Source: Minisyncoccota bacterium (GTDB taxonomy: Bacteria > Patescibacteriota > Minisyncoccia > Phycocordibacterales > UBA9973). From it: a DNA stretch of 64,000 nucleotides. The stretch lies in assembly GCA_041661005.1 (NCBI GenBank), contig JBAZVG010000001.1, positions 607,515-671,514 of the forward strand, given 5' to 3'. Positions 206 through 49,063 of the stretch are shown here, in pieces; position 1 is the first letter of the stretch; each line of letters starts with the position of its first letter. The notes beneath the pieces are model-generated. The model did no database searches. It worked only from the letters and a program-made list of their open reading frames with translations, and was not told the DNA's origin. Made by a program: the position numbers and the translations under genes.

Positions 206-1753
206 CTAAGCGACTTTCGGTCTGTATTGTATCGCTTCTAAAATATGATTCGCTTTTACATCTTCCGAATTTTCGAGGTCGGCAATAGTCCGAGCGATTT
301 TAATAACTCGATGATAAGCGCGAGCGGAGAGAGCCAAACGTTCCGCGCTGTCGTCCAGCAGATCCCTCACCTCTTCTGTGAGTTTGACCATACTTCCTAA
401 ATCTTTCACATTCATTTCGCTATTTGTGCTGATATCGCGACCAAGTTTTTTAAATCTTTTCTTTTGATTCTCGCGCGCTTTTATTACTCTCGTCTTTATT
501 TTCTCACTTTTTTCTCCCGTTCCTTCTCCACCAAGTTTTTTGTAATCCACATTACCGACAGATACCCATAAATCTATGCGATCCATTATAGGTCCAGATA
601 ATTTTCTTTTGTATCTATCCAAATCAGATGGCTTGCAAATGCAAGATCTTTGTTTGCTACCAGCATTACCACAAGGACAGGGATTCATTGCGGCCACCAA
701 TATAAAATTCGAAGGGAAAATGGCCGAACCTTTGGCGCGAGAAATTGAAACAATGTTATCTTCGAGGGGCTGTCGGAGCGATTCGATTACTCTTTTTTCA
801 AATTCTGGAAATTCATCTAAAAACAAAACTCCTCGATGCGCGAGCGTTACTTCTCCGGGTTTTGGATATGTTCCTCCACCGATCAATGAAACATAAGATG
901 AAGTGTGATGTGGGGCTCGAAATGGCGGGAAGCAAACCAACTCTCCTCTCGTAGCTCCTGCCACGGAATGAATACCAGTTATTTCCAACACTTCTTCGGT
1001 GCTCAAGTCCGGCAACAATCCTGAAAAAACTCTAGCAAGCATCGTCTTGCCTGTGCCGGGAGGGCCATACATGGCGATGTTGTGTCCGCCGGCGGCGGCA
1101 ATTTCGAGTCCACGCTTGGCGCCTTCTTGTCCGCGAATGTCAGAAAAATCCCCTCCTTTTATTTCTCTTTTATAAATTATTTTGGTTTCCGGTTGCACTA
1201 AAATTTTCTTTTTTTTATTTTCCAAATTTTTTTTACCTTCATCAATATGTTCTATAACTTCTTTTAAACTGTTTGCTCCGAAAATTTTTATACCCTCCAC
1301 CAATGCCGCTTCTATCGCATTTTCTTTTGGTAAATATATTTCTTCATACCCCCGTCTTTTAGCTTCTTCTGCAAGTGGCAAAGCCCCACGTATGCTACGA
1401 AGCATCCCATCCAACCCGAGCTCACCAAGAAAAATTTTTTTCTCTGAATTAAATTTAATATCACCAGTAGCCTTGAGATACGCGATAGCAATCGCCAGAT
1501 CAAAAAACGGCCCTTCTTTTTTTAGATCAGCCGGTGAAAGCGAAACTATTATTTTTTGATTTTTTGCTTTTGGAGATTTAAAACCAGAATTTTTTATCGC
1601 TCCGCTTACTCTGTCTTTGGATTCATCCACAGCCTTATCGGGTAAACCAACCACAGAAAAAGTGTGAAGTCCTTTGGACAAATCCACCTCAATCGTCACA
1701 ATAACTCCCCGGAGTAGATTGACTTGCGCCGAGTAAACTTTAGCGAAGCTCAT
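206..1753 (-). CDS. comM: Mg-chelatase-like AAA+ ATPase ComM/YifB family
   Basis: 515 aa; Walker A GPPGTGKT; Lon-like N-terminal domain; C-terminal ChlI-like region; full-length ORF. Confidence 0.9.
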   Translation of the reverse strand: MSFAKVYSAQVNLLRGVIVTIEVDLSKGLHTFSVVGLPDKAVDESKDRVSGAIKNSGFKSPKAKNQKIIVSLSPADLKKEGPFFDLAIAIAYLKATGDIKFNSEKKIFLGELGLDGMLRSIRGALPLAEEAKRRGYEEIYLPKENAIEAALVEGIKIFGANSLKEVIEHIDEGKKNLENKKKKILVQPETKIIYKREIKGGDFSDIRGQEGAKRGLEIAAAGGHNIAMYGPPGTGKTMLARVFSGLLPDLSTEEVLEITGIHSVAGATRGELVCFPPFRAPHHTSSYVSLIGGGTYPKPGEVTLAHRGVLFLDEFPEFEKRVIESLRQPLEDNIVSISRAKGSAIFPSNFILVAAMNPCPCGNAGSKQRSCICKPSDLDRYKRKLSGPIMDRIDLWVSVGNVDYKKLGGEGTGEKSEKIKTRVIKARENQKKRFKKLGRDISTNSEMNVKDLGSMVKLTEEVRDLLDDSAERLALSARAYHRVIKIARTIADLENSEDVKANHILEAIQYRPKVA

Positions 1754-1772
1754 GATGATTTTGCAATCTACA

Positions 1773-2129
1773 CTAATTTTTTAAATGTTCTTTACAAGTT
1801 CGAGCAGCTGGGTTTGCTTCTAAGCGCGTTATTTCTATATTTTTTTTGCATACTTCACACTTGCCGAAAGATTCCCTATTTATCCCCTTGAGCGCTTTTA
1901 AAATATTGTTCAATCTGGGCCCTAGAGTTTTAATCATAGAACTTCTTGCCTCAAAATCTTCGAATCTGTCTGCCATGTCATTTTGATCCGACTCTGGAGA
2001 ATCCAACTCTTCTGGAATCGCCTCCCATTCGAGAGTTTCAGTGTTTAATTTGCCCATACCTCGCAACTCCTCAAGCAAAAGATCTCTTTCAGTTTCCAAT
2101 TCTTCTTTAATTTTTTTCTTGTCTAACAT
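1773..2129 (-). CDS. DksA/TraR-family C4 zinc-finger protein (alternative start at 2228)
   Basis: C-terminal CxxC-x17-CxxC (CEVCKKNIEITRLEANPAARTCKEHLKN) after a coiled-coil. The annotated ORF start at 2423 overlaps the divergent gene, so the internal Met at 2129 (118 aa) or 2228 is preferred. Confidence 0.65.
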   Translation of the reverse strand: MLDKKKIKEELETERDLLLEELRGMGKLNTETLEWEAIPEELDSPESDQNDMADRFEDFEARSSMIKTLGPRLNNILKALKGINRESFGKCEVCKKNIEITRLEANPAARTCKEHLKN

Positions 2130-2259
2130 AAGCAAATAATAGCATTTTAATTTTGCATAGCAAGTATCAGTCTTCTCCCATACCAATGGAAACATCCCAT
2201 CTTCCGCCAAACCGCCACCTATGGTCATTTCGGCAAAAAAAATCTTCCGTGGAAGAAAA

Positions 2260-2288
2260 TTGAGAAAATTAAATAGAACTAGTACAAT
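2260..2288 (+). promoter_or_regulatory. sigma70-like promoter TTGAGA-N17-TACAAT placed 6 nt before the ATG at 2295 (leaderless transcript likely)
   Basis: -35 TTGAGA 2260-2265, 17-nt spacer, -10 TACAAT 2283-2288, start codon 2295. Confidence 0.4.
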
Positions 2289-2294
2289 ATATGT

Positions 2295-3107
2295 ATGGGA
2301 ATTGAACAACCAAAAGCAAACAAATCTGAGAAGGAAAGTTCTCCTAAAAAAAGAAAAGGCATTTTTAATAAAATAGTGAACGTTGTGGCTCTTGGAGCCA
2401 CCCTTGTAGGTGGAAAACTTCATGCAGAAGATTCACAAAATTCTTCAACAACTACTAACCCTACCACCGAAAGTGGAGGAAAATTGGCTGATGCGGAAGC
2501 TGTACAGAAAATAAGAGAAAAACTTGGTGTTCAGGAACCGAAAGTGGAAAGTGATTCAGAGCCTGGTCACATATGGAGTTCTGCTGACGCAAAAATATTT
2601 CAAACTTTGAGAGAAAAAACATTTTTTGATGGAAGTATGGAAAAACACATTAGAGAAGGTATACAGAAAGAGAGAGAATTAAAGGAAAAAGGTTTAGTTG
2701 AGAAAAATAAATTACCGAGCAATCCGGACCAACAAACAACAGGCTCGTCGAGTTGGGCACGCAATGTGGTTAAACATGCAAAAATTTTACAAGAAGGCGT
2801 ACGCGACCAAGAAGACGTAATGAATCTCATATACAAATCGTTTGGGTCTTTTGTCTATCGCTTTCAAAATCCGGATCCTGTGCTGGGAGATTCCATAAAT
2901 GAAATTATGAGAGAAAAGGAAAAACTTATAGAATGGGATAGATCAGGCACAAAAGCGGATTTTAAATCAATATCGGAAGAAGCAAACGAATTAAAAGAAA
3001 TTTTTCAAAAACTTACAAAAGAACATGGTATTCATCCAATCAATATTCGAAACGAGGTTGAAATGTTGAGTGAAATATCTCAGAAATGCGCGGAAAGGGC
3101 AAAATGA
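2295..3107 (+). CDS. hypothetical protein (Lys/Glu-rich, 270 aa)
   Basis: Long ORF with a promoter-like element upstream; no recognisable domain. Confidence 0.5.
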   Translation: MGIEQPKANKSEKESSPKKRKGIFNKIVNVVALGATLVGGKLHAEDSQNSSTTTNPTTESGGKLADAEAVQKIREKLGVQEPKVESDSEPGHIWSSADAKIFQTLREKTFFDGSMEKHIREGIQKERELKEKGLVEKNKLPSNPDQQTTGSSSWARNVVKHAKILQEGVRDQEDVMNLIYKSFGSFVYRFQNPDPVLGDSINEIMREKEKLIEWDRSGTKADFKSISEEANELKEIFQKLTKEHGIHPINIRNEVEMLSEISQKCAERAK

Positions 3108-3130
3108 AAATAAAAGTAAATCTTTCTTTT

Positions 3131-4015
3131 TTATTTTTTTATCTGAGTCGAGGAGAGACGAAACATTATCTCTTTCCCGGCATTTTTGGCATTAGTTATG
3201 ATGATAGAATTATCGTTTGCAAAAATATACATCATCACCATTTTACCACCATCGTCATACAAGATACGCGCATTCTTGTTCTCAACAACTCCGTCTTCAA
3301 AACTTTTTGTAAAGAGGTATTTTATCTCAGATGAAATATCTACCCAAAAAAAATCTTTTAAATCAAGAAACATCTTTTCTTCCCATGCACGCAAAGCGTC
3401 AAAAGTATCGACGACAGAGCGCACTTTGATCAAAATGAAAAAATCTTTACCCGCTGATGGATCAGATTGGATTTCTTCATTGACCACACCCATCAAAAAA
3501 TTATCTCCAACAAAAACATCACCGAGAAGCGGGTCAACTTTAGGCTGAAAATTTCCCTTTATAAGTTCAAAAAACCTTCTCAAGCCTATGATCTTTTTAT
3601 CTTCAGTCAGATAAATCCCTTCAATTCCACCCTTTTTTACTTCTGTTCTTTTGATTTCATTAACGACAGTTTGAATAATTTCTTCTCTTTTCAAACCCTT
3701 CACCTCAATGAAAGCGCTCTTGTCATTAAAAATGAGGGGTGTAAATTGCTTTTCGATGGGGACAGTAGGAACTTCTTCACTGAAAAAGAAAAAAATTAGT
3801 GTAACTAAAGATATCGAAAAAAATAAAAAACTAAAAAACATAAAAAGTTTGTTTTTTTGCGACTCTGGAGACAAATCCATTTTTTCTTTCTCGTGTTTTC
3901 CTTCTTCGTAAATTATTTTTTTTATCAGCCCGCTTTTGTCATCCTCAATCACCTTCGCCATATCTCCAGCATAAGTTTGAACAATTTTATTTTGTATTTT
4001 ATTATCTTTTTCCAT
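3131..4015 (-). CDS. hypothetical single-pass membrane protein
   Basis: 294 aa; one strong TM helix (LFMFFSFLFFSISLVTLIFFFF) after a ~50-aa cytoplasmic N-terminus. Confidence 0.5.
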   Translation of the reverse strand: MEKDNKIQNKIVQTYAGDMAKVIEDDKSGLIKKIIYEEGKHEKEKMDLSPESQKNKLFMFFSFLFFSISLVTLIFFFFSEEVPTVPIEKQFTPLIFNDKSAFIEVKGLKREEIIQTVVNEIKRTEVKKGGIEGIYLTEDKKIIGLRRFFELIKGNFQPKVDPLLGDVFVGDNFLMGVVNEEIQSDPSAGKDFFILIKVRSVVDTFDALRAWEEKMFLDLKDFFWVDISSEIKYLFTKSFEDGVVENKNARILYDDGGKMVMMYIFANDNSIIITNAKNAGKEIMFRLSSTQIKK

Positions 4016-4108: not shown

Positions 4109-6250
4109 TTATTTTTTAAAGAAATTACTGTCCGCCTCTTTGATAGAAAGACCAATTCTCCCTTTTTCCCTATCAATAGATATAACTTTCACGGGCACTA
4201 TCATACCCTCCTTTATTATATCGCTAACTCGCTCGACACGAAATGGGGCTAATTCAGATATGTGCACCATACCATCTGTAAAAGCATTCAACTTAACAAA
4301 GGCCCCAAAGTCGGCTATTTTTACAACTTCTCCTTTTAATATTTCTCCCACAGCATACTCGTGCGTCATTTCCAAAACTATGGACTTGGCTTTCTCTGCG
4401 GAATCACCTTTCCCTGTGAAATAGACAGTTCCATCATCTTCAATGGTGATCTCTGCTCCAGACTTTTCCTTGATCTCCTTTATAGTTTTTCCGCCACCTC
4501 CTATCACCATGCCTATCATGTCCGGATTTATTTTAATAATCAATATCTTTGGAGCGTTTGGCGATATGTCAGCGCGAGGAATTTTAATTTCTTTTTCAAT
4601 TTTGTCTAAAATAATCGCTCTGGCGGCCTTCGCTTGCAACATTGCTTCACCCAATATTTTTATCGGCACACCTTCTACTTTTACATCGAGCTGTATAGCA
4701 GTGACCCCAACCCTCGTGCCTGCAACTTTGAAATCCATGTCTCCATAGTGATCCTCAGGACCTTGGATGTCAGTCAAGATTTTATATTCATCATCAGACT
4801 TATGCATCAATCCCATCGCGATACCAGCGACAGGCGCCTTGATCGGAACTCCGCCATCCATTAATGCCAAAGTCGAAGCGCAAATCGAAGCTTGAGAAGT
4901 AGAACCATTGGAAGCCATTGATTCAGACACTAGACGAATTGTATATGGGAATTCCAAAGCAGAAGGCAAAACCATCGCGAGCGCTTTTTCAGCCAAAGCG
5001 CCATGACCCACTTCTCGACGATTTGTAAATCCTGCTCGTCCTGTTTCTCCCGAAGAATATGGTGGAAAATTGTAATGATGCATGAATCTTTTTTCAGCTT
5101 TCGTCTGCATCCCATCAATCATGTGTCTATCTTCAGGACCGCCCAATGTCAGCACCGATAAGACATGTGTCCCCCCTCGGTAAAAAATCCCGGAACCGTG
5201 CAAGACAGACGAAACCCCTCCAGCTTGAGCGTAAAGATCTCGAAGCTCATCCATTTTTCTACCATCAGCTCGTTTGTTTTCTTCGATAGCGCTCTGGTGC
5301 AGAATATCGTTTTCTGTATCATCAAACAAATTGTCTTCCGAACTAAAATCTTCTCTCTCAGTATATTTGTCTGCAACCATTTTATTCCAAATGCTATGAA
5401 GCTCGTCGATTTTTGCCTTGCCCACGCCAGAAAATATAGCATCAGACATTTTAGGCAGAATGTTTTCGTTAAATAATTTAACCGATTCAGGATCTATTTC
5501 TTCTTTCGCAATGACTCTTTTTTCTTTACCTATTTCTTTTACAATTTTCTTTTGGAAGTCTTCCAATTTGGCGATCTCTTCACTTGCCCGAGTCAAAGCT
5601 ACCTCCAATTCTTTTTCATCAGTCTGATGAGCTGAAGCTTCAATCATATTTATATTTCCATTTTTACCACAGACAGTAATATCAAATTTATATTTGGCAT
5701 CGTCTACCCTCCAGCTATACGGAGCGTTAACTATCAAACTATCGTCACTTGACTCATGGGAAGCTTGCTTTCCTTCGGGGTCATATTTTCCAATACGCAC
5801 ACAACCAACTGGACCATTCCATGGAATATTAGAAACCGCGAGCGCGAGCGAAGCGGCGTTTACTGCTAAAATTGTCGGATCATTATCGTCAACAGAAATT
5901 ACAGTCACTATCACTTGCACCGCATGGCGAATCGATTGATCAAAAAGCGGACGCAAAGTCCTATCAATAACTCGACTGGCAAGTATCGCATCTTCGCTTG
6001 GCTTGCCTTCTCTTTTTACAAACTTCGAACCTGAAATTTTACCCGAAGCGTAAAATCTTTCCACATAATCCACTGTCAAATTAAAAAATCCCAAGCCATT
6101 TTGCTTGTCTTTAGACATACAAGCAGTGGCTAGAACTATCGTCTCGCCATACTTCAACATCACTGACCCATGGGCTTGCTCTGCCAAATCTGTAAAAATA
6201 GCAGTCAAATTTTTTCCACCAATCTCCACACTATATTCTTTTTTTTGCAT
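4109..6250 (-). CDS. pnp: polyribonucleotide nucleotidyltransferase (PNPase)
   Basis: Two RNase PH domains, KH and C-terminal S1 domain. The start MQKKEY at 6250 is preferred over the upstream in-frame Met at 6313. Confidence 0.92.
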   Translation of the reverse strand: MQKKEYSVEIGGKNLTAIFTDLAEQAHGSVMLKYGETIVLATACMSKDKQNGLGFFNLTVDYVERFYASGKISGSKFVKREGKPSEDAILASRVIDRTLRPLFDQSIRHAVQVIVTVISVDDNDPTILAVNAASLALAVSNIPWNGPVGCVRIGKYDPEGKQASHESSDDSLIVNAPYSWRVDDAKYKFDITVCGKNGNINMIEASAHQTDEKELEVALTRASEEIAKLEDFQKKIVKEIGKEKRVIAKEEIDPESVKLFNENILPKMSDAIFSGVGKAKIDELHSIWNKMVADKYTEREDFSSEDNLFDDTENDILHQSAIEENKRADGRKMDELRDLYAQAGGVSSVLHGSGIFYRGGTHVLSVLTLGGPEDRHMIDGMQTKAEKRFMHHYNFPPYSSGETGRAGFTNRREVGHGALAEKALAMVLPSALEFPYTIRLVSESMASNGSTSQASICASTLALMDGGVPIKAPVAGIAMGLMHKSDDEYKILTDIQGPEDHYGDMDFKVAGTRVGVTAIQLDVKVEGVPIKILGEAMLQAKAARAIILDKIEKEIKIPRADISPNAPKILIIKINPDMIGMVIGGGGKTIKEIKEKSGAEITIEDDGTVYFTGKGDSAEKAKSIVLEMTHEYAVGEILKGEVVKIADFGAFVKLNAFTDGMVHISELAPFRVERVSDIIKEGMIVPVKVISIDREKGRIGLSIKEADSNFFKK

Positions 6251-6413
6251 TTTTTTCTTGCCCCGAGCGAAGTCGAGGGGAGTTCGTATCCAGACTACAG
6301 TGTTGTTCCGCAATTTTGGAACACTACTTTGTGTCTAGACGCGAACCGATTAACTAATAAAATCTAATCAACTTATGATCATTATAGCATTTTTAGACTA
6401 AAAGGCAATGAAA

Positions 6414-6689
6414 TTAAAAAAGTTCTGAGTGAGTACCTATATCGAATAACACCAGAACAAGTTTATTTCCTTCAATCCTGTATATTAGTAAAATATTACC
6501 TTGAATATGGCATTCTCTATATCCATCATATTCACCATGCAAGTTGTGGTCTTGATAAATTGAACCAAGTTTCTCTTCTCTACATAAAGCATCAATGATT
6601 TTATTCAGTTCTGTTTCATTAAATTTACCAGAATGTTTTAATTTCTTAAAAGACTTTTCGTATTGCTTTGTTGGAAAAGGTATAAGCAT
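6414..6689 (-). CDS. yafQ: type II toxin, YafQ/RelE-family mRNA interferase
   Basis: 91 aa; C-terminal ...GYRECHIQGNILLIYRIEGNKLVLVLFDIGTHSELF is typical of the YafQ/RelE fold; lies 3 nt downstream of its antitoxin. Confidence 0.8.
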   Translation of the reverse strand: MLIPFPTKQYEKSFKKLKHSGKFNETELNKIIDALCREEKLGSIYQDHNLHGEYDGYRECHIQGNILLIYRIEGNKLVLVLFDIGTHSELF

Positions 6690-6691
6690 TT

Positions 6692-6958
6692 CTATCTTTT
6701 CATAATATCATCGTGCATTTCTTTTGCCGATGCATATCCTTTGCCATTTTTTATTACCCAATTAAATTCTTTGTCCCATCTTTTCCTATTAGCTCTTGTT
6801 TTCGTAGTGCTAGGTACAAAGGGCATACACTGATCAATTGCTACTTGATTTAAAAACATTTTCATACCAGAAGACATATCAATACCCATACCTTTAAATG
6901 CCTTTTGGGCTCTTATTTTAGTGGGACTATCTATTCTAATTTGTATTGTTGTGTTCAT
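6692..6958 (-). CDS. dinJ: type II antitoxin, DinJ/RelB family
   Basis: MNTTIQIRIDSPTKIRAQKAFKGMGIDMSSGMKMFLNQV resembles the RHH DinJ N-terminus. The internal Met at 6958 avoids overlap with the RT gene. Adjacent to yafQ. Confidence 0.75.
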   Translation of the reverse strand: MNTTIQIRIDSPTKIRAQKAFKGMGIDMSSGMKMFLNQVAIDQCMPFVPSTTKTRANRKRWDKEFNWVIKNGKGYASAKEMHDDIMKR

Positions 6959-7019
6959 ATACATAGCATATACCCCTGTAATGACAATGTCAATACATAA
7001 AAATATGTAAACACTTTTA

Positions 7020-8069
7020 TTACTCATTCAACCAAAACCAAAATTTATTTTGTATTTCCTGGCTTAGTTTATAAGCGTTCGCATGAGATAAAACACCAAG
7101 ATAAGATTGAAGGGAAGAACGAAGAGTCAACTCACTGACTTGCCCATTCCTATAACGATTCACATTTTCTTTCAGCTTCCTAAAAATTCTTTGTTTCGTT
7201 TTTGTTCTCAACTTAATATGTTCAGGCAAAATGACGTAGCCGAGAAAATCAACGCCACGGATATGTTTAGTGATATGAACTTTTTTAGGATGGAGTTCAA
7301 GACATAATTTTGTTTCCAAAAAATCTTGTATCGCCGGAATTAAATTTTTTAGGTATGTCTTATCCGTAGAAATTATTATGAAGTCATCAGTGTAGCGTGC
7401 GTAGTATTTTATTTTCAATTCATGCTTAACGAACTGGTCAAATTCATTCATATAGATATTGGCAAAAATCTGCGATGTCAGGTTGCCGATCGGCACACCC
7501 CGGCGATCAAAGAGATTTCTTTTGTTCGTCTCAAAGCTCTCGATGATTTCTCGCATGAGTTTCATCACTTTTTCATCCCTGATTCTTTTTTCCAGAATGC
7601 CGAGCAAAACATTATGATTCACAGAATCAAAAAACTTTCTGATGTCGCATTTCAGAGCATAACACCGGCGGGTACTATTTTGACTTACGGAGCGAGTCAT
7701 CTCTACAACCTTTTCCATCCCTTTGTGAGTTCCTTTACCGACACGACAAGAAAAAGAATCAGGAATAAAGGTCGGCTCAAATATCGGATTAAGTACATTA
7801 AAAATAGCGTGGTGGAGAACGCGGTCGCGGACAGTCGCTTTATGAATCCGGCGCAGTTTCGGGTCATGAATCCAAAACCCTTTATACGGTCCATGTTTGT
7901 ATATTCCGCTCTTTAAATCCCTATAAAGATCGAAAATGTTTTTTTCGAGATTAAGTTCAAAATCGCTGACGTCTATCCTGTTTCTTTTGTCCGCTTTAAA
8001 CATGTCCCATGCGCGAAATAATGAAGAAGGAGAAATTATTAACCAATATAAATCTTTATAGAATTTCAT
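7020..8069 (-). CDS. diversity-generating retroelement reverse transcriptase
   Basis: 349 aa; RT motifs including YARYTDDFII (YxDD) and the DGR-specific motif-4 PIGNLTSQ (IGxxxSQ); sits next to avd, TR and VR. Confidence 0.9.
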   Translation of the reverse strand: MKFYKDLYWLIISPSSLFRAWDMFKADKRNRIDVSDFELNLEKNIFDLYRDLKSGIYKHGPYKGFWIHDPKLRRIHKATVRDRVLHHAIFNVLNPIFEPTFIPDSFSCRVGKGTHKGMEKVVEMTRSVSQNSTRRCYALKCDIRKFFDSVNHNVLLGILEKRIRDEKVMKLMREIIESFETNKRNLFDRRGVPIGNLTSQIFANIYMNEFDQFVKHELKIKYYARYTDDFIIISTDKTYLKNLIPAIQDFLETKLCLELHPKKVHITKHIRGVDFLGYVILPEHIKLRTKTKQRIFRKLKENVNRYRNGQVSELTLRSSLQSYLGVLSHANAYKLSQEIQNKFWFWLNE

Positions 8070-8072
8070 TTT

Positions 8073-8423
8073 ATGAATGACCTAGATATCCCCATCTTAA
8101 GAAAATCCTACGACCTGTACAAAGAATTTTACAAACTAAGATTAGTAGTACCAAAACAAGATCGCTATGTTCTTTGGCAGAAATGCGAGAATACTTTGAT
8201 CACCGTCTTAGAAGGTGCATTGCTTGCCAGTCAGCAATCTAAAATGGAGAAACTACCAACACTGGAAAGAACCAGCGTTAAGCTAAACTTCCTGAAAGTT
8301 TGTGTTCGCCTTATGAAAGACGTCAAAGCTATTAATTCCAAAACTTATATCGTCATCGAAGCAGATCTCGACGAGATTGGAAAAATGCTTGGAGGGTGGA
8401 TTAAATCCACAAAAGAGCGTTAA
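8073..8423 (+). CDS. avd: DGR accessory variability determinant (Avd, four-helix-bundle family)
   Basis: 116 aa; the C-terminal EADLDEIGKMLGGWIKSTKER resembles BPP-1 Avd (EVGRILGSWIARVNRK); divergent from the RT gene with 3 nt between the two start codons. Confidence 0.8.
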   Translation: MNDLDIPILRKSYDLYKEFYKLRLVVPKQDRYVLWQKCENTLITVLEGALLASQQSKMEKLPTLERTSVKLNFLKVCVRLMKDVKAINSKTYIVIEADLDEIGKMLGGWIKSTKER

Positions 8424-8424
8424 C

Positions 8425-8456
8425 AGAAACTCCCACGATTTAAGGTGGGAGTTTCT
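8425..8456 (+). terminator. hairpin just after the avd stop (agaaactcccac-N8-gtgggagtttct), T-rich 3' flank
   Basis: Perfect 12-bp inverted repeat starting 2 nt after the avd stop; lies between avd and TR. Confidence 0.45.
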
Positions 8457-8478
8457 TATGAGAGAAGATGGAAATGCC

Positions 8479-8586
8479 GGGAGGCGCCAACACCGACGTT
8501 GTCGTTCTGGTTACCATTCCAGTTGTTGACATTGAGACCGTTCTCGTTGAAGTTACCGACGCACGAGACGTTACCAGCGTTGACCT
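8479..8586 (-). repeat. DGR template repeat (TR), sense on the minus strand
   Basis: 108 bp homologous to 9083-9190. On the minus strand it reads QVNAGNVSCVGNFNENGLNVNNWNGNQNDNVGVGAS with 12 AAC/AAT codons. Not inside any plausible ORF. Confidence 0.85.
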
Positions 8587-9000
8587 AACGTATATTGCTT
8601 GTTTTCATCCGTGTCACCAAGAATTGAGTTTTACCGTTTTTGCAAACCTATATACTCTTTCCTTTGTTTTAGATATAAAGTTCCAAACCTTATATCAGAT
8701 TTAATTTGGAAGCATCTGTATAAACAGAACTTCACTAAAAACAAGCAAGAATTTCCATCTCTATTCTTAATCGCACTCTACTGTGATCCGTAGACCATTA
8801 GTATTCCGGCGATATCTCAAGATGAGATATCTCGCGAGCTTGAACCGTAATCCAAACTACATTAGCAAGATGTAAATATATTAACTTAATGTATATAAAA
8901 TAGAAAGACCTCGCGAGAAGCAGAGCTTTCACGAGGTCTGACGAACCTCGTGGTTCGTATTTGTTATAGACAAGATAATATAAGAATCACCCACATCAGA

Positions 9001-9033
9001 GCCTCCGCGCCCCAGAAAAAATGGCGCGGAGGC
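9001..9033. promoter_or_regulatory. GC-rich hairpin (11-bp perfect stem gcctccgcgcc/ggcgcggaggc, 11-nt loop), 27 nt past the target stop and 50 nt from the VR 3' end
   Basis: Inverted repeat seen directly; no U-run on either strand, so not a canonical intrinsic terminator; position matches DGR hairpin/cruciform elements. Confidence 0.5.
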
Positions 9034-9059
9034 TCAAGTAGTCAAGAGGAGCAAATCCT

Positions 9060-9707
9060 CTAGGCTACAAGGGTCACTTTCAGGGAGGCGCCAACACCGA
9101 CGCGGTCGCCCTGGAGACCACCCCAGCCGATGACAGAGAGACCGTGCCCGCCGAAGATACCGACGCACGAGACGTCACCAGCGTTGACCTGCGCGGTCTT
9201 CACGGTACGCTCGGCGCAGGCCGCCCAAACGTTCGGGTTGGACCGCTTTCCGGTGCGACGATAGACGAGGATATCCTTGGTCACTTCGGCGATGGTCGTC
9301 GGCACTTCGTACTCAGGGGGCAACATCGCCACCTGCTCTTCGGGCGTCTTGCTCGTCGAGCCGGGAACAATTTCCCTGAGCATGATGTACAAACGCGGTT
9401 CGAGTACCGCGATGTCCGTGTGTGGCTGACCCACATGCCACGGATTTGTGTTGAAGTAGAACTTCGGCTGTCCGTCCGCCGAATGTAGCTCAAGCCACTT
9501 CGCGACCGTGAGCGGATTGCCGTCGAGCGCCGGCATCCCCATGAAGGCGAAGTGAGTGTCTTTCACCAGTTTGCCCTTGTTGAAGGGGCAGGCGCTCATG
9601 AGGACTTCCTCGACCGCCGGGCCCAACTTTTCAGTTGGGCCGTAGTAACTGACCCAGTCGGCTTGACCGAAGATGCGAACTCGGAGGTCCTGCGTTGTGC
9701 TTGTCAT
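9060..9707 (-). CDS. DGR variable (target) protein, VR at the C-terminus
   Basis: 215 aa; ~60% GC ORF in a ~35% GC context; the last 36 codons are the VR (9083-9190). Confidence 0.8.
   Translation of the reverse strand: MTSTTQDLRVRIFGQADWVSYYGPTEKLGPAVEEVLMSACPFNKGKLVKDTHFAFMGMPALDGNPLTVAKWLELHSADGQPKFYFNTNPWHVGQPHTDIAVLEPRLYIMLREIVPGSTSKTPEEQVAMLPPEYEVPTTIAEVTKDILVYRRTGKRSNPNVWAACAERTVKTAQVNAGDVSCVGIFGGHGLSVIGWGGLQGDRVGVGASLKVTLVA
9083..9190 (-). repeat. DGR variable repeat (VR)
   Basis: 108 bp; 19 differences from TR, all at TR adenine positions (minus-strand sense). AAC in TR becomes GAC/ATC/GGC/CAC/CTC/CGC in VR, and AAT becomes TCT or GGT. Confidence 0.85.
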
Positions 9708-9765
9708 TGCTTTATCCTTTCGGTTGCCAGATTCGCTCTGGCTTTTGTTGCGGCCTGTCTCAGTT

Positions 9766-9850
9766 GAGAGACGAGCCCTCTGTCGCCAAATAAATTATTG
9801 GCTCAAAAAGTTTACCCGTCCCGTCGCTTTAGCGAAGGAGGGCTCGTCTC
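9766..9850 (-). promoter_or_regulatory. 13-bp perfect inverted repeat (gagacgagccctc ... gagggctcgtctc) enclosing two small hairpins, in the 5' leader of the DGR target gene
   Basis: Seen directly; nested stems gccaa-taaattat-ttggc and cgc-ttta-gcg. Confidence 0.35.
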
Positions 9851-9945
9851 ATGTAGGGATTCTTGTAAAAGAGCAGTTCTTTAAACTGTTTTTAGTATAA
9901 CATGAAAGAGGACAACCTGTCAAGAAAATTTAGAAATGTCTTTTT

Positions 9946-10455
9946 CTATTTCACCCCGATCAAATACTTGCGAGGATTCTCGGAAAGATCTACGAAGTCG
10001 TCTACCGCTTCGCGAAGCTTACCGGAAGTTGATTGACTAAACGAGACGACTTCTACTTGCACCCCCATCGTCTGCAAGTATTCCACGAGTGGAACAAAGT
10101 CTCCATCACCAGAAACGATAACCGCAGAGTCGAGGCGAGGCGACATTTTGATAGCGTCTACTGCGAGCCCCACGTCCCAATCCGCCTTCTTGCTTCCCCC
10201 GGCGAATATTTGCAAGTCTTTTGTTTTAGTTTCGATACCGAGCTTGGACAACGCTTCAAAGAAATTCTTTTCATCCCCTGCTTCGGTAGTGATGACATAC
10301 GCCACTGCGCGCACAAGCTTCCTGCCCGCCACTGCATCGCGCAAAACCGCGCCGAAATTTACTCGCGCTTTATATAAATTGCGAGCCGAATGGTATAAAT
10401 TTTGAGTATCAATAAAAACCCCAACCCTCTGTTCTTTATGTTTTATTACTGTCAT
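9946..10455 (-). CDS. NYN-domain (LabA-like, COG1432) protein
   Basis: MTVIKHKEQRVGVFIDTQNLYHSARNLY... then VIVSGDGDFVPLVEYL; the internal Met at 10455 is preferred. Confidence 0.75.
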   Translation of the reverse strand: MTVIKHKEQRVGVFIDTQNLYHSARNLYKARVNFGAVLRDAVAGRKLVRAVAYVITTEAGDEKNFFEALSKLGIETKTKDLQIFAGGSKKADWDVGLAVDAIKMSPRLDSAVIVSGDGDFVPLVEYLQTMGVQVEVVSFSQSTSGKLREAVDDFVDLSENPRKYLIGVK

Positions 10456-10489
10456 GTAATTATTATAGCAGATATTAAAATTTGTCGCA

Positions 10490-10590
10490 GGCGTACTTTT
10501 TAGAAAGCCTTGCGCAGGCTGACGAGCCGAGCAGTTCGCTGGCAAAGCTTTGCCAGATAGATTGCTTTATGAAAAGTATGCCAAGAAAGA
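10490..10590 (-). repeat. intergenic TIR/hairpin repeat family 1, copy A (reverse orientation)
   Basis: Shares ~100 bp with 13517-13609 and 23539-23631; 18-bp terminal inverted repeats; central variable hairpin ctggcaaagctttgccag. Confidence 0.7.
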
Positions 10591-10600
10591 ATTTTAATAT

Positions 10601-10864
10601 CTAAACGAGTTCAACCTTCTTCATCAAAGCGTTGTAGCGAGCCTTGTTTGTTCTTTCCAAATATTTCAAATGAGTGCGTCTGTTGGCCACCATCTTGATC
10701 AAACCCCTTCGAGAATGATTGTCTTTCTTGTGTTTCTTTAAATGTTTTGCCAATTCATCAATCGCCGCAGAAATAATAGCCACCTGCACCTCTGGAGAGC
10801 CTGTGTCCTTATCATGAATCTGATTTTTCTTTATAATTGTCTGCTTTTTCTTTACTGCTAACAT
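10601..10864 (-). CDS. rpsO: 30S ribosomal protein S15
   Basis: TGSPEVQVAIISAAIDELAKHLKKHKKDNHSRRGLIKMVANRRTHLKYL matches the S15 consensus; internal Met at 10864 (88 aa). Confidence 0.9.
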   Translation of the reverse strand: MLAVKKKQTIIKKNQIHDKDTGSPEVQVAIISAAIDELAKHLKKHKKDNHSRRGLIKMVANRRTHLKYLERTNKARYNALMKKVELV

Positions 10865-10962
10865 ACAAAGGATAATAGCATAAACTGGCAAAAATTGCAA
10901 TCCCACCCTCTCCTCAAGATTTTTTGTATAAAATATATTGTGCGACATGGTAGAATATATTC

Positions 10963-11949
10963 ATGGCATCAATTAAAGATCTAAAAAACCAATTTCTTGA
11001 ATATATAGAAATAGAAAAAGGACGAGCGATAAGAACCGTAGAAAATTACGATCATTATTTGACTGTATTTCTGGAGCAGACAAAAATTACAGACCCCAAA
11101 AACATAACCGACGATAAAGTCCGAGACTTTCGTATTTGGCTCAATCGTCAACCCGCATTGCCGGAGCACATGCGAGGCAGGTCCACTGGAAACAATCGCG
11201 TGACAGGCGACACCATAAAAAAGAAAACACAGAATTATTATTTAATAGCTCTCAGAAGTTTCCTAAAATTTTTAACAAAAAGAAATATTAATTCCCTACC
11301 GGCAGACCATATAGAGCTCGCAAAAATCAGTGAAAGACAAATAGACGTAATTTCTCAAGAAGAATTGAAAAGACTTTTAGACGCTCCGAATCAAGAAAAA
11401 AATCCTGAAAGAAAAGCTCGCGACAAGGCAATACTAGAGATGCTTTTTTCCACCGGTTTGCGTGTTTCTGAACTGTGTTCGTTGAAAAATGATTTAGATC
11501 TGCATTTAGACGAATTTTCTATCCGTGGAAAAGGAGGAAAGGTCCGCGTAGTTTTCTTGTCTGACGAAGCCAAGAAGGCGGTGAAAGATTATTTAACTTT
11601 GCGAAAAGACATGTCGGACGCTCTTTTTGCAAAAGTAAATGATGAAACTTTTAAAGGAAAAAATTTGAATCAAAAAAAGAATAACTCAGAAATAGAAGAT
11701 GGCCTAACTCGCCGTTCGATAGAAAGAATTGTAAAAAGATACGCCACGATCGCCGGCATATCCAAAAAAGTAACTCCCCATGTGATTCGTCATGTCTTCG
11801 CGACTGACCTCTTAAGCAACGGCGCAGACATTCGTTCTGTGCAAGCCATGCTCGGCCATGCCAACATAGGTACTACACAAATATATACTCACGTGACGGA
11901 CAAACATTTGCGGGATATACACAAGAAATATCATGGCATCAATAAATAA
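10963..11949 (+). CDS. xerC: tyrosine recombinase XerC/XerD family
   Basis: 328 aa; C-terminal HVIRHVFATDLL...GHANIGTTQIYTHV (R-H-R-Y catalytic residues); extended -10 TGgTAGAAT lies 6 nt before the ATG. Confidence 0.88.
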   Translation: MASIKDLKNQFLEYIEIEKGRAIRTVENYDHYLTVFLEQTKITDPKNITDDKVRDFRIWLNRQPALPEHMRGRSTGNNRVTGDTIKKKTQNYYLIALRSFLKFLTKRNINSLPADHIELAKISERQIDVISQEELKRLLDAPNQEKNPERKARDKAILEMLFSTGLRVSELCSLKNDLDLHLDEFSIRGKGGKVRVVFLSDEAKKAVKDYLTLRKDMSDALFAKVNDETFKGKNLNQKKNNSEIEDGLTRRSIERIVKRYATIAGISKKVTPHVIRHVFATDLLSNGADIRSVQAMLGHANIGTTQIYTHVTDKHLRDIHKKYHGINK

Positions 11950-16048: not shown

Positions 16049-16909
16049 CTATTTAAGTTTCTGAAATTCTTTAATAAATTGAAGTGGATTCACAGAAGCA
16101 TTGCCGACTTTAATAGCAAAATGGAGGTGCGCACCCTCTACATCTGCTCCCTGATCGCCCGAATAGCCAACAATTTCGCCTGCTTTTATTTTTGATCCAG
16201 CTTGCACCAAAACTTTTGAAAGATGTAGATATTTTGAAATAACTCCATCACCATGATCTATCACAACTGTCGGCCCTTCTAAATACAGTGCCTTACTTTC
16301 ACCCCAGAGAATAATACCGTCGGAAATCGCATAGACCGGCGTGTCAATTTTTGCGCGTAAATCCACTCCTTGATGTGTGGTTGAGTAATTGGTATAAATC
16401 CTTTTATATCCAAACGGACTTGTGGTCGTCATAGTATCAAGTGGATCTCTGAAGATTGATTTCCAAAGCTTGGGTTTCGTTTCTGTAACTACCTTAGTAA
16501 GTAAAGCTACAAGTGGAGCTTTGTCTTTTAATACGACCTCCTGCTTTGCTTTAGGAAGCGTCGCAAATTTATATGCTGTTTTTGTCACAGTTTTTTTGTA
16601 AGTTCCTAATTTTACCTGAATAACTCTCCTATCTAATTCTTTTTCACCTTCTTTAATTCGAAGATTATAATTACCGAGTTGCTTGCTCACGTCAACCGCA
16701 ATAAGAGTATACTTTCGATCACCATAATCAAAAACCGGCATTTTTACACCACCAAACAATACCGAAGTTGTCGTCGAAAAATATATCGGATACAAAAGCA
16801 CCTCCCCTTGTTTCACAGTTAAAAGAGCGGCATCCGATTCATGACTAAATCCCAAAATACATGACAAAAAAATTAGAAAGATGAAAAATCTTGCGCTAAA
16901 ATTATTCAT
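16049..16909 (-). CDS. M23-family metallopeptidase (LytM-like), secreted
   Basis: Signal peptide; HxxxD ... HLHF catalytic motifs. Confidence 0.85.
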   Translation of the reverse strand: MNNFSARFFIFLIFLSCILGFSHESDAALLTVKQGEVLLYPIYFSTTTSVLFGGVKMPVFDYGDRKYTLIAVDVSKQLGNYNLRIKEGEKELDRRVIQVKLGTYKKTVTKTAYKFATLPKAKQEVVLKDKAPLVALLTKVVTETKPKLWKSIFRDPLDTMTTTSPFGYKRIYTNYSTTHQGVDLRAKIDTPVYAISDGIILWGESKALYLEGPTVVIDHGDGVISKYLHLSKVLVQAGSKIKAGEIVGYSGDQGADVEGAHLHFAIKVGNASVNPLQFIKEFQKLK

Positions 16910-16921
16910 ACTGCTATCATA

Positions 16922-18631
16922 TCATTTCCGCACTCCATGTTTGGTATGTAACTTTTCCACCTCTTTTTCTTCGAGCTCTTCTTTTTTTTCTTTTCCTTTA
17001 TCCCCAAGCGCTTTGAGCTCTTTGTCACTGAGTTTGTCAAAAGATTTCACTAATTCAGACAATTTTTCTACTGTATTTTTCTCTGGATTATCTAAAACTT
17101 CTTCTAGTAAAGCATGCAAGATCCACCCCATTCTGGGTCCCGGCTTGATTCCAAGCTCTTTTATCATGAATTCCCCATTGATTTTCAGCTGTCCGACAGA
17201 AATAGGGTCTCGAAGCGCCTCTTCAATCATTGCAAAATACTTGCGCAAGCGATATGGCGCTTCTTTTTTCTTCATTCCTACCCTGTCGCACTCACGGACA
17301 TTCATCAAAAGCCAAATATTATCCACGCCGACTTTTGTAATAATCCTACGCACAGCAGAAAGTGTGATTAATTCTGTATCTGAAAAAAACATATGGTTGC
17401 GAACAAGTTTTTCCACAAGATCAATTTCTTTTTTGGGAAATTTCAATCTCTCCATTATTTTTTTTACCATTCGCGCGCCGACAACTTCATGGCCGTAGAA
17501 AGTATATTTTTTCTTTGAAGCCTGCCTCGACAAAAATTCTGGGAGCCGTATCGGTCCCCTGTCCTCTTGACTCCAAGGGCGAAGGCGGGAGAATTTTTCG
17601 GTCGGGGCAGGCGAAAAAATTCGTCTTGTTTTCGGCTTGCCGATATCGTGAAAAAGCGCAGAAAGCCTTATTTCTAAAGGCCAATTCTTGTCTGCGGCAT
17701 GTTGTAGGGCATGAAGCAAATGATCCCAAACATCATAAATATGCTCGCCTAATTGTTCACACCTTATCCCCTCTTCTAATTCCGGAATTATATTTTTTAA
17801 CAATCCAAATTTTTGCAACATTAAAATTCCACTCGCAGGATTTTTAGACATTATTATTTTTACAAACTCATCACGAATTCTTTCCTCAGATATTTTTTTT
17901 ATTAAATCAGAATTTTTTAAAATACTTTCTGTTGTGAGATATGACACAGAAAAATCAAGTTGACAAGCAAAGCGAACAGCGCGCAACATTCGCAGAGCAT
18001 CTTCTTGAAATCTTTCATCCGGCTCCCCTACTGCTCTTAATGTTTTACTCTCAATGTCCTTTATACCACCAAACAGGTCAATAACATGTCCGTTATCTTG
18101 TCCTTGATGCCTGCCCGCCGTAGATTTAGCGGAGGCGGGTCCTTTATCTATCCGAAGAGCTAGAGCATTGACCGTGAAATCACGTCTCTTAAGGTCATCT
18201 TCTAGTCTAGTACTGAATCTAATTTCATCGGGGTGTCGGAAGTCGCTATATTTTGCTTCAATTCTATATGGTGTAACTTCAATAATGCTATATTCTGATG
18301 TTGTTTCACGAATAACGTCACCCGGAGATGTTTCTCGTGAAACATCCGTCTTGTTTGTTTCACGCGGAACGTCCTGAGTATGCCCGAAAGATGAAACGCA
18401 TACACCAACAGTACCAAAGGTATTTTCATAGATAGTCTTTTTAAAAAGACCCATAATCTGATCTGGTTTAGCGTTTGTTGTAACATCCCAATCGTTCGGT
18501 TTTCTAGACATTATAAGATCACGAACACAACCACCAACTAGATATGCTTCAAAACCAGCTTTTTCAAGCACACTAGTTACATGTGAAACTTCTTTAGGTA
18601 TCTTTTCGATGATATTTTTAAGATTAGTCAT
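16922..18631 (-). CDS. cca: CCA tRNA nucleotidyltransferase / poly(A) polymerase family with HD domain
   Basis: GGCVRDLIM...DWDV head domain and a C-terminal HD domain; contains an in-frame repeat insertion (see 18297-18380). Confidence 0.85.
   Translation of the reverse strand: MTNLKNIIEKIPKEVSHVTSVLEKAGFEAYLVGGCVRDLIMSRKPNDWDVTTNAKPDQIMGLFKKTIYENTFGTVGVCVSSFGHTQDVPRETNKTDVSRETSPGDVIRETTSEYSIIEVTPYRIEAKYSDFRHPDEIRFSTRLEDDLKRRDFTVNALALRIDKGPASAKSTAGRHQGQDNGHVIDLFGGIKDIESKTLRAVGEPDERFQEDALRMLRAVRFACQLDFSVSYLTTESILKNSDLIKKISEERIRDEFVKIIMSKNPASGILMLQKFGLLKNIIPELEEGIRCEQLGEHIYDVWDHLLHALQHAADKNWPLEIRLSALFHDIGKPKTRRIFSPAPTEKFSRLRPWSQEDRGPIRLPEFLSRQASKKKYTFYGHEVVGARMVKKIMERLKFPKKEIDLVEKLVRNHMFFSDTELITLSAVRRIITKVGVDNIWLLMNVRECDRVGMKKKEAPYRLRKYFAMIEEALRDPISVGQLKINGEFMIKELGIKPGPRMGWILHALLEEVLDNPEKNTVEKLSELVKSFDKLSDKELKALGDKGKEKKEELEEKEVEKLHTKHGVRK
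18297..18380. repeat. GTTTCACG / CGTGAAAC palindromic repeat family 5, three tandem units in frame in cca (encodes VPRET...VSRET...VIRET)
   Basis: tgtttcacg x2 plus palindrome gatgtttctcgtgaaacatc; the same core recurs at 19163-19190 and 19381-19400. Confidence 0.5.
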
Positions 18632-18641
18632 TCAATTTTTG

Positions 18642-18715
18642 TGCACCCGGGGGGAGTCGAACCCTCAACGACCGCTTCGAAGGCGGGTATGATATCCATT
18701 TCACTACGGGTGCAA
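18642..18715 (-). tRNA. tRNA, probably Arg (anticodon TCG), non-canonical
   Basis: Cloverleaf with acceptor GCACCCG/CGGGTGC, T-loop TTCGACT, anticodon loop CTTCGAA; one mismatch each in the anticodon stem (27:43 C.T) and the T stem; no encoded CCA. Confidence 0.5.
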
Positions 18716-18894
18716 AATTATTTAATAATCAGTTAATTATACACTAATTCGAAAAATCCACAAATAACTCTTATTTTACAAGCCAATTAAGGAATTGCTT
18801 TAGTTCAAAAAAAATATTATAATCAAAGCACATTTTTATTTTAGGAAAAGAATTTAAAATGTTTTTATTGTTCCTTGTTACATAAATAAATTTT

Positions 18895-18965
18895 GCGGTC
18901 ATCGATTAATGGTAGGTCAGGACATTGCCAATGTTCAGGTTGGAGTTCGATTCTCCATGGCCGCA
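18895..18965 (+). tRNA. tRNA-Gly (GCC)
   Basis: Acceptor GCGGTCA/TGGCCGC, anticodon stem GGACA/TGTTC with loop TTGCCAA, T arm TGGAG-TTCGATT-CTCCA. Confidence 0.7.
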
Positions 18966-19162
18966 CAAAGTGATGTCCTTTATAAATTTTCGGTGATATC
19001 TTGAAAAATAAGCTTTTATTCTAAACTGTGGATAACTATGTTGGTAATGTTTATAAAGGACACATTCAGAGTTTGTCTTTAAAGTACTTTTTTGACTAAA
19101 ATACGTTGCAAAATAAGGATACCCGCCTTGCCGTCGAGGCAGGTTTCAATAAAAGACACTAA

Positions 19163-47840: not shown

Positions 47841-48344
47841 CTAAACTTTTTGATGCGCGAACGCAGTGAGCGCGATGGCGATAGCGTCTAATTCGTCATC
47901 AGATTTTTTATTTTCTTCTATATCCACTAAAATTTTAACCATTTTTATCACTTGTTCTTTATCCGCTTTTCCATAGCCGGTTGTTGCCATTTTTATTTGG
48001 GGTGGGGAAGCCTCAAAGATGCGCAGTCCGGCGAGGGCTCCTTCATAAACCACAACTCCGCGCGCTTCGGCGACTCGCATGACCGTCTTTTGATTTGTAT
48101 TTAAAAACAAAGTTTCTATTGCTAAAATTTCTGGTTTATATTCTTTTATTATTCTGCGCACTTCTTCGCCGATCAGGCGCAATCTCTCGGGAAATTCCAA
48201 CTTTGCAGAAGTTTTAAAACATTCAGAAAAAATGACACGTTCCCTGCCAAAAGCGGAGTCGAAGGGTTTGTTGCCCTGTTTGGTCTTTTCTAATATTGCC
48301 ACTCCCAGCCTTTCAAATCCGGGGTCTATTCCTAAAATTCTCAT
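47841..48344 (-). CDS. ruvC: crossover junction endodeoxyribonuclease RuvC
   Basis: MRILGIDPG... with catalytic acidic residues. Confidence 0.9.
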   Translation of the reverse strand: MRILGIDPGFERLGVAILEKTKQGNKPFDSAFGRERVIFSECFKTSAKLEFPERLRLIGEEVRRIIKEYKPEILAIETLFLNTNQKTVMRVAEARGVVVYEGALAGLRIFEASPPQIKMATTGYGKADKEQVIKMVKILVDIEENKKSDDELDAIAIALTAFAHQKV

Positions 48345-48548
48345 ATTTTGAAGTTTAACATAACTTATCTAATAATAGTGATATTATATATAAGGCATTG
48401 TTCTTTATCAGTAGAGCTAGGGCACATTATAAGTGCATAAGGGTGTTTAATGGGACGTTCTTCTGATCCCAGAACATGCAGGGAGTTGGCCCTTGGAGTC
48501 TCTGTTGAGTGAACCAACTTTCACTCAACATCAAGTCGTTCGGACCGA

Positions 48549-48570
48549 GAAAGCCTGACGGCTTTTTTAT
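48549..48570 (+). terminator. intrinsic terminator (aagcc-tgac-ggctt + T6) ending a ~170-nt plus-strand transcript that has no ORF
   Basis: Stem-loop plus U-run seen directly. Confidence 0.5.
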
Positions 48571-48706
48571 TTGCCCAGCTTCGTTGAGTTTTCCACAGTC
48601 AGAATTTGACATATATATATATCGGTTCATTATTTAAGTGAACAGCTCTTTGACGCGATTCGGAACATTAAGTCGGATCTAAAGTGAGGGGCTGTCTAAG
48701 AAACAT

Positions 48707-48865
48707 ATGCCGAACAAACTGCTCGTTGGCTTCGCCAACATCAATGGTCAGATTCAGGCTTCGCGTGGCGCGCTCGACTGCACCCAGGCGGCTCATCCGG
48801 CGGCCACCATCGTGGCCATGAGCGACAACAACAATCCGGTGCGGCGCTTTGGTAGCACCGCGTGA
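48707..48865 (+). CDS. small ORF (52 aa) in a ~60% GC island; coding status uncertain
   Basis: MPNKLLVGFANINGQIQ...; preceded by a TTGACA-N17 promoter-like sequence at 48608; overlaps an 86-aa ORF on the opposite strand. Confidence 0.25.
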   Translation: MPNKLLVGFANINGQIQASRGALDCTQAAHPAATIVAMSDNNNPVRRFGSTA

Positions 48866-48988
48866 TCGAAGATCTGCCCGAGCTCCGGGAGGGGTCTGAC
48901 AAGACCCCTCCCATCCATCAAAGTCCACTAGTTGGACTCTTTCACTGAAGGAGCACTAGTGGCTTTTTCTTTTACCTTTTTTATTATT

Positions 48989-49063
48989 CCCCTCTTGAGG
49001 GGTGGCTCGCTTGTGAGACGGGGTGGATATCCCACCTCCCCCTAAAGGGTACTCCTCAAGAGG
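48989..49063. repeat. palindromic repeat family 4 copy overlapping the ruvB 3' end (supplies the last codons and stop)
   Basis: cctcttgagg ... cctcaagagg. Confidence 0.7.

Follow-up and report, generated by a model that had tools for sequence, protein, structure and literature searches.

A diversity-generating retroelement with a GC-rich target gene in a Minisyncoccota genome

The DNA analyzed in this work, referred to as the window, is a stretch of 64,000 nucleotides from a Minisyncoccota bacterium (GenBank assembly GCA_041661005.1, contig JBAZVG010000001.1, positions 607,515 to 671,514), and the subject of the analysis is a diversity-generating retroelement (DGR) within it. The locus holds genes for a reverse transcriptase (RT), for the accessory protein Avd and for a target protein, together with a template repeat (TR), a variable repeat (VR) and several structured RNA elements. 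An earlier note on this DNA had described a complete DGR consisting of RT, Avd, TR and a VR-bearing target, and every defining part was recovered here, namely a DGR-type RT, Avd, a TR/VR pair differing at adenines only, a sequence resembling the initiation of mutagenic homing (IMH) site and a target with a predicted C-type lectin (CLec) fold. We consider the element to be a complete DGR typical of the candidate phyla radiation (CPR), with the order target and VR, TR, inverted avd and RT, at a probability of roughly 90%.

Genes and repeats of the cassette

The RT gene (7020-8069, minus strand) encodes 349 amino acids and matched the Pfam profile RVT_1 with an E-value of 4.6e-27 (95.5 bits). Its best solved relative was bRT, the DGR RT of a Bordetella phage (PDB 8ub7_A, E 1.9e-45), whereas the closest group II intron RT reached an E-value of 7e-26. 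The motifs YARYTDDFII and PIGNLTSQ, which had been read as the YxDD box and the IGxxxSQ type of DGR RTs, are indeed present and aligned with WARYMDDIVV and PIGSLTSQ of 8ub7_A. In NCBIfam, the top matches were models for group II intron RTs and for Drt (defence RT) proteins, all of them below the cut-off, and only models of such other RT classes were returned, but no DGR-specific one. This would explain why public records call the homologues, of which at least 7994 were found at E ≤ 1e-30, retron-type or group II RTs. The gene call provided by JGI is 22 residues shorter (327 amino acids, starting at Met23). Since the first 22 residues are conserved among the homologues, the longer open reading frame (ORF) is favored, and with it a gap of 3 bp to avd.

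The avd gene (8073-8423, plus strand) encodes 116 amino acids and is divergent from the RT gene, with 3 bp between both start codons. It is inverted relative to TR and RT, and this inversion is kept in every related cassette. The plus-strand orientation was absent from the earlier note, whose description of the ORF as Avd-like is sustained by the Pfam family bAvd, which was matched with 56.9 bits at a cut-off of 40. A search of the PDB sequences with Avd yielded nothing useful.

The repeat proposed at 8479-8586 and 9083-9190 was confirmed by a pairwise recount at exactly these coordinates. Both copies lie on the minus strand, measure 108 nt and are 82% identical, and the copy at 9083-9190 covers codons 173-209 of the 215-codon target ORF. 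Read along the coding strand of the target (minus), the copies show 19 differences over 108 positions, each of them at an adenine of the copy at 8479-8586. Because every difference is an adenine in that copy, it is the TR and the copy within the ORF is the VR. From TR to VR, the changes comprise 11 A>G, four A>T and four A>C substitutions and affect 19 of the 28 TR adenines, while the 80 non-adenine positions are free of differences. The probability of such an adenine-only restriction arising by chance is approximately 1e-14.

When read in the frame of the VR, the TR contains 12 AAY codons, in which adenines occupy codon positions 1 and 2 only, and three codons with a single adenine. Adenine substitution in this arrangement is unable to reach a stop codon, but could generate approximately 8e15 protein variants. 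The 12 AAY codons account for the majority of the variable sites, and the variable columns of the target-family alignment coincide with them. Among cassettes with flanks of approximately 80% identity, a TR core of 56 nt is identical.

The target gene (9060-9707, minus strand) bears the VR, forms a GC-rich island and encodes a stand-alone protein of 215 amino acids. An identical sequence is recorded as hypothetical protein WC735_03480 in a metagenome-assembled genome (MAG) assigned to Candidatus Paceibacterota, and it is also present in JGI and Logan. The earlier statement that it belongs to no recognized family was borne out, with no match in Pfam or NCBIfam at E ≤ 0.01. The gathering score was reached neither for FGE-sulfatase (PF03781) nor for DUF1566 of Pfam, and the target profile returned nothing better than an E-value of 0.29 among the PDB sequences. 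The close homologues number at least 204 and, wherever a lineage is given, come from the CPR; none of the 120 listed has a precomputed Pfam domain. The profile search extended the family to at least 1538 clusters at 50% identity. The proteins of the family are 60-84% identical except for C-terminal positions that coincide with the AAY codons of the TR, and they share the conserved residues C40, H52, H91, H96, D98, C164 and C181. The structure model of the target matched FGE-type CLec domains as well as the solved DGR variable proteins TvpA, Mtd and TaqVP. The predicted fold, with the VR in the C-terminal region of the domain, is consequently of the FGE-type CLec kind that had been expected for this protein.

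Neither a signal peptide nor a hydrophobic segment was detected in the target (maximum hydropathy of 1.17), and the protein is probably a cytoplasmic binding protein. This agrees with published CPR DGR targets, which lack membrane anchors and known domains (PMC8144416). Four distant family members (P0167, P0168, P0203 and P0235) are considerably larger, with 900-1900 amino acids and two to six tandem copies of the domain. In these proteins the copies are joined to GTPase, TPR, HEAT or PARP-catalytic domains, a context suggesting that the domain serves in binding inside the cell.

Structured RNAs and cis elements

The end of the VR resembles an IMH (9063-9101, minus strand) and contains the GC-rich block GTCGGTGTTGGCGCCTCCC, which is common to the TR before the flanks differ (IMH versus IMH*). 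The window has just two copies of the block, one in the VR and one in the TR, with 0 occurrences expected by chance, and the TR/VR homology stops directly after it. Two hairpins (8999-9060, minus strand) follow the stop codon of the target, a small one with the arms GAGGA/TCCTC (9060-9046) and a GC-rich one of 13 bp (9035-8999). Both are kept in nine cassettes, with compensatory changes in three pairs. A GC-rich inverted repeat downstream of the IMH has been described for DGRs (PMC5758913), and the position of the hairpin at 9035-8999 matches that description.

The TR itself is embedded in a structured DGR RNA of approximately 450 nt (8426-8870, minus strand), which is supported by conservation, covariation and folding. 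It starts with two 5′ hairpins (8870-8830 and 8822-8765, minus strand), followed by the long-range helix A (8762-8753 with 8473-8463, minus strand), which brackets the TR, and by helix B (8748-8736 with 8607-8595, minus strand), after which come the TR and a terminal stem-loop (8455-8426). The mean column identity over six cassettes was 79%, and the consensus fold comprised 117 pairs, 18 of which showed compensatory changes. A total of 98% of the alignment cells were paired, compared to approximately 45% with slid partners, and none of 500 shuffles reached the observed values. Folding of the single sequence resulted in a z-score of -5.95 and reproduced helices A and B. The pairs of helix A are invariant or show one-sided changes only, so that this predicted helix rests on prediction and conservation without covariation.

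A stem-loop of 12 bp (8426-8455) is located between the end of the TR and the stop codon of avd, and compensatory changes were found in 5 of its 11 pairs over nine cassettes. With an A-tract, a GC stem and a T-tract, it is shaped like a bidirectional terminator, and it is a candidate for the Avd-binding stem-loop. In 207 of 278 DGRs, a stem-loop just downstream of the TR has been reported to be the element that Avd binds, and such a stem-loop together with a duplex between upstream and downstream sequences was reported across DGRs, CPR included (bioRxiv 10.1101/2023.10.23.563531). The local elements match both.

The target mRNA carries a structured 5′ leader (9708-9886, minus strand) that is conserved in the target-family loci. 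Upstream of it lies a promoter-like site (9894-9923, minus strand) consisting of TTGACA, a spacing of 18 nt and TATACT with TG, which agrees with the consensus at 11 of 12 positions and is a consensus match only; the boxes TTGACA and TATACT are also found at the equivalent place upstream of homologues. The leader proceeds from a near-palindromic box (GTTCTTTAACAAGAAT type) in the region where transcription would start, through the long hairpin P1, a GAGAC repeat, CCGCAACAAAAG and the hairpin P2 to the ribosome-binding site. P1 (9850-9768, minus strand) has the constant arms GAGACGAGC and GCTCGTCTC around a covarying interior, with compensatory changes in 10 of 15 predicted pairs, and the GAGAC repeat could pair alternatively with its 3′ arm. 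P2 (9741-9727, minus strand; CCAGA-GCGAA-TCTGG) has covarying stems and a constant GCGAA loop. The fold of the leader reached a z-score of -3.7. P1 occurs once, upstream of a target homologue, in the window and in each of 16 distinct related loci, and it was found nowhere else in the window or in the rest of the related-locus sequence scanned. As judged from these sequence comparisons, the structured leader appears to be specific to the target family. Rfam provided no match for it, either for the whole window at the gathering threshold or for 8380-9960 in E-value mode, and only tRNAs and chance matches were returned for the whole window, for 8380-9960 and, likewise in E-value mode, for 48300-49100.

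Priming, copying and homing are adopted here from the Bordetella phage model, as is present activity. Accordingly worded for this locus, the structured RNA of approximately 450 nt (8870 to 8426, minus strand) carrying the TR would be transcribed, and the cDNA would replace the VR, guided by the GC-rich IMH and the post-stop hairpins. This would recode the 12 AAY codons and three other codons in the last 37 residues of the target.

Related cassettes, activity and the GC contrast

A genome scan for target homologues resulted in 22 CPR loci. The order target, TR, inverted avd and RT is kept in nine of them, making the window the tenth example; one locus (L009) ends within avd, and for 11 further loci, RT and avd were not found within the fetched flank. 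In 11 related loci, the target is followed by a TR whose mismatches are confined almost entirely to adenines. When the target-family and TR scans are taken together, 12 related CPR cassettes have a TR beside the target and follow a similar logic, including the incomplete L009, L018 and L026. Four further cassettes were reached via the RT and belong to a third, only distantly related target family, with equal layout and an equal TR/VR pattern.

The segment from the spacer to the RT gene (7001-8869, 1.87 kb) is present or absent as a block at orthologous sites beside a resident target gene. L005 is syntenic with the window (Xer, rpsO, NYN, target, RelB, YafQ and PNPase), but lacks 8869-7001, with the junction located at 4975-4988 of L005. 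Likewise, L051 carries the module (1468-3356) and L001 does not (6657-6804) at the orthologous site between target and ftsZ. Orphan targets without the module keep the IMH and the post-VR hairpins. The spacer-TR-avd-RT block is thus one unit of gain or loss. In the window, rpsO (10601-10948) and pnp (4109-6313), which are usually adjacent, are split by an insert of 4.3 kb (6314-10600) that comprises an NYN-domain gene, the DGR and a RelB/YafQ toxin-antitoxin pair; the corresponding insert of L005 is without the RT module. L018 was found to carry two cassettes. Its first one (11168-11305) kept the TR, but only a remnant of 46 residues of the RT, and approximately 7 kb away lies a second, complete DGR (16803-19151) with RT, inverted avd, TR (18167-18279) and VR (18564-18676), the target of which is unrelated, GC-rich and 197 amino acids long.

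With regards to activity, the ORFs of RT, avd and target are intact, and together with the lack of any non-adenine difference between TR and VR, this argues for recent or current retrohoming. Several observations weigh against the picture of a complete and active DGR. Avd reached 76.6 bits with the NCBIfam model DivGenRetAVD, 3.4 below the cut-off of 80, and the promoter and terminator calls in the region were no more than in shuffled sequence. An exact metagenome scan with the 56-nt TR core gave no second allele and only one contig, from an 80%-identical relative. For two related elements, the consensus VR was identical among assemblies with the same RT (6 and 5 assemblies, with identity over 1.7-2.3 kb), although these assemblies may derive from the same data. 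Finally, L011 and L017 have clean adenine-only VRs beside frame-split RT genes, and a clean pattern is therefore no proof of a working RT.

The alternative that survives best is a recently silenced relic, in which all parts are still recognizable, retrohoming has ceased and the VR is frozen. Besides the identical VRs and the frame-shifted RT genes just mentioned, it is favored by the absence of the TR-avd-RT module at the orthologous sites of L005 and L001, which implies that loss is common. We nevertheless regard it as unlikely, since RT, avd and target of the window are full-length, the catalytic motifs and all RNA elements are intact, and 0 non-adenine differences over 80 positions would require the silencing to be very recent. 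A complete DGR, probably with recent or current retrohoming, is the preferred reading. In L011 (1896-2961) and L017 (5114-6171), the RT is split over two frames by a frameshift or an assembly error. Five independent assemblies (L046-L050) share one RT, which is 80% identical to that of the window, and all of them break upstream of the TR or in the VR-TR spacer; such breaks are what heterogeneity of the VR or the TR/VR repeat would cause.

A pronounced GC contrast between the target and the other two genes had been noticed before, and it is real: the GC content of the target is 0.605, compared to 0.372 for the RT and 0.385 for avd. At the third codon position (GC3), the values are 0.76, 0.39 and 0.41, respectively, and over the three codon positions of the target they are 0.61/0.45/0.76. 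Among the 46 long ORFs of the window, PNPase included, the target is an outlier by 7.5 standard deviations. GC is raised evenly over the whole ORF and, in long-form homologues, over their N-terminal extension as well. The enriched stretch begins approximately 90 nt before the start codon and stops at the post-VR hairpin.

The contrast was also found in 22 of 23 loci of the target family, with a target GC3 of 0.64-0.83, whereas the GC content of the flanks is mostly 0.32-0.45 and the GC3 of RT and avd mostly 0.31-0.44. It reappears in the unrelated second target of L018 and in all four third-family cassettes (GC3 of 0.68-0.87 for the target versus 0.34-0.57 for the RT), so that approximately 28 CPR cassettes with three target families in genomes of 0.32-0.52 GC are covered overall. 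Among the homologues, 37% of the codons for identical residues differ, yet all are GC-rich.

Three explanations for the bias were rejected. A GC-rich target is not a universal DGR trait, as four phage DGRs do not show it: in Bacillus phage BalMu-1 and crAssphage LMMB, both with AT-rich genomes, only the last 150 nt of the target are GC-elevated, and the DGRs of the phages Bacuni_F1 and Saumur are without marked GC contrast. Adenine avoidance is not the cause either, since adenine and thymine are similarly rare at the third codon position (0.10 and 0.14), and the coding strand contains 134 A and 122 T. Codon bias due to high expression was dismissed because the target stands apart from all other ORFs in the set that contains PNPase.

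As a tentative and rather doubtful proposal, a process linked to DGR targets could keep the targets of CPR-type elements GC-rich (GC3 of about 0.65-0.87), combined with leader-controlled expression in this family. Candidate causes, as opposed to a foreign origin, are GC-biased repair or conversion at a recombination-prone locus, accompanying retrohoming or frequent allele exchange, or selection on the DNA or mRNA of the target. A recent horizontal import of the target from a high-GC donor to a place beside resident AT-rich RT and avd genes appears less probable still. It would fit the high GC content at all three codon positions, as expected for a gene from a genome of 60% GC, and a few family members do occur in CPR contigs of 0.54-0.57 GC (L022 and L024). 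Moreover, the identities of target and RT/avd are partly decoupled, with L006 and L017 sharing a target scaffold of 60% and an avd of 88% identity, and the TR-avd-RT module is gained and lost independently of the target. Against an import stand the occurrence of the contrast over so many cassettes, target families and host compositions and the joint variation of TR, leader and 3′ hairpins with the target within cassettes. The codon divergence of 37% at identical residues, with GC3 kept at 0.64-0.87, fits a long residence under a maintained bias and not repeated fresh imports, and for this reason a recent import of the target alone is unlikely.

If a process linked to DGR targets does maintain the bias, composition alone would flag DGR targets in CPR genomes, orphans included, and an unrecognized side effect or requirement of mutagenic retrohoming would be exposed. 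The contrast demands a mechanistic account and could be used as a signal in searches. It is unmentioned in the DGR literature searched, which did not include the principal study of CPR DGRs by Paul et al. (2017, Nat Microbiol).

Comparison with known systems

The membership of the element in the DGRs is not in serious dispute. An ordinary duplication beside an RT of the group II intron, retron or defence class, with only coincidental DGR likeness, could invoke the sub-cut-off NCBIfam matches and the names in public records, but its probability is negligible given that the recount of the adenine-only pattern (chance of approximately 1e-14) already refutes it, that the Bordetella DGR RT leads other RTs by 20 orders of magnitude, that Avd adjoins the RT and that 15 other cassettes follow a similar TR/VR logic.

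Within the DGRs, the arrangement TR-(avd)-RT corresponds to architecture B3, to which 90% of CPR DGRs belong (Wu et al. 2018, PMC5758913). DGRs are frequent in CPR/Patescibacteria, as the earlier note states, and this type of element is already known to be common there. The order target, TR, reverse-strand avd and RT is present in the window, in the nine target-family loci and in the four loci reached via the RT, and all record names refer to CPR lineages. The inverted avd is therefore no novelty, but part of the published B3 layout (PMC5758913). Compared to the CPR B3 DGRs (PMC5758913) and to DGR clade 2 (Roux et al. 2021, PMC8144416), nothing essential differs here. Shared features are the inverted avd, the C-terminal VR, the AAY-rich TR, the Paceibacteria-related host and a target without recognizable domains, transmembrane segment or signal peptide. 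The present instance had not been reported, and in its MAG the genes are annotated as a hypothetical protein and a retron-type RT.

With the DGR of Bordetella phage BPP-1 (mtd-avd-TR-brt), which is the prototype for the mechanism, the element has the RT motifs, Avd, the adenine-specific transfer, the GC-rich IMH, the downstream hairpin and, according to the structure model, the CLec target in common. The differences concern the layout and the RNA. In the CPR element, avd sits in inverted orientation between TR and RT, deviating from the Bordetella gene order. The RNA extends only approximately 55 nt 3′ of the TR before running antisense into avd, whereas 5′ of the TR, a long conserved RNA of approximately 280 nt is found. 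Furthermore, the element is chromosomal, and its target is a stand-alone protein of 215 amino acids instead of a tail fibre.

Unlike TvpA of Treponema denticola (2y3c) and TaqVP of Thermus (5vf4), the target shows no sequence match to FGE-sulfatase, DUF1566 or any PDB chain, lacks a lipoprotein or secretion signal and has its own set of conserved Cys, His and Asp residues. Its distant relatives carry domains that are typical modules of intracellular signalling or conflict, a trait shared with the DGR-diversified intracellular sensors of conflict systems (Doré et al. 2024, PMC10907252). In contrast to these sensors, the protein of the window is a bare domain without an effector or NTPase part.

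The element is one more well-formed example of an abundant CPR class and offers a clean reference case in which every cis element can be located. A target family of at least 1538 clusters without a Pfam model can now be described as a predicted, probably intracellular FGE-type CLec domain. The leader and the 450-nt TR RNA are concrete constructs for a reconstitution of CPR DGRs. Beyond an ordinary DGR, the cassette is distinguished by the ORF-wide GC enrichment of the target, by a leader RNA of its own and by a spacer-TR-avd-RT module that comes or goes as one piece.

Apart from the DGR, a stretch of 710 nt (48345-49055, minus strand) with a GC content of approximately 0.53-0.55 was observed between ruvB-like and ruvC-like genes. 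It contains no convincing ORF or Rfam match, and its fold reached a z-score of -5.7 against shuffled sequences; it may be an undescribed structured RNA.

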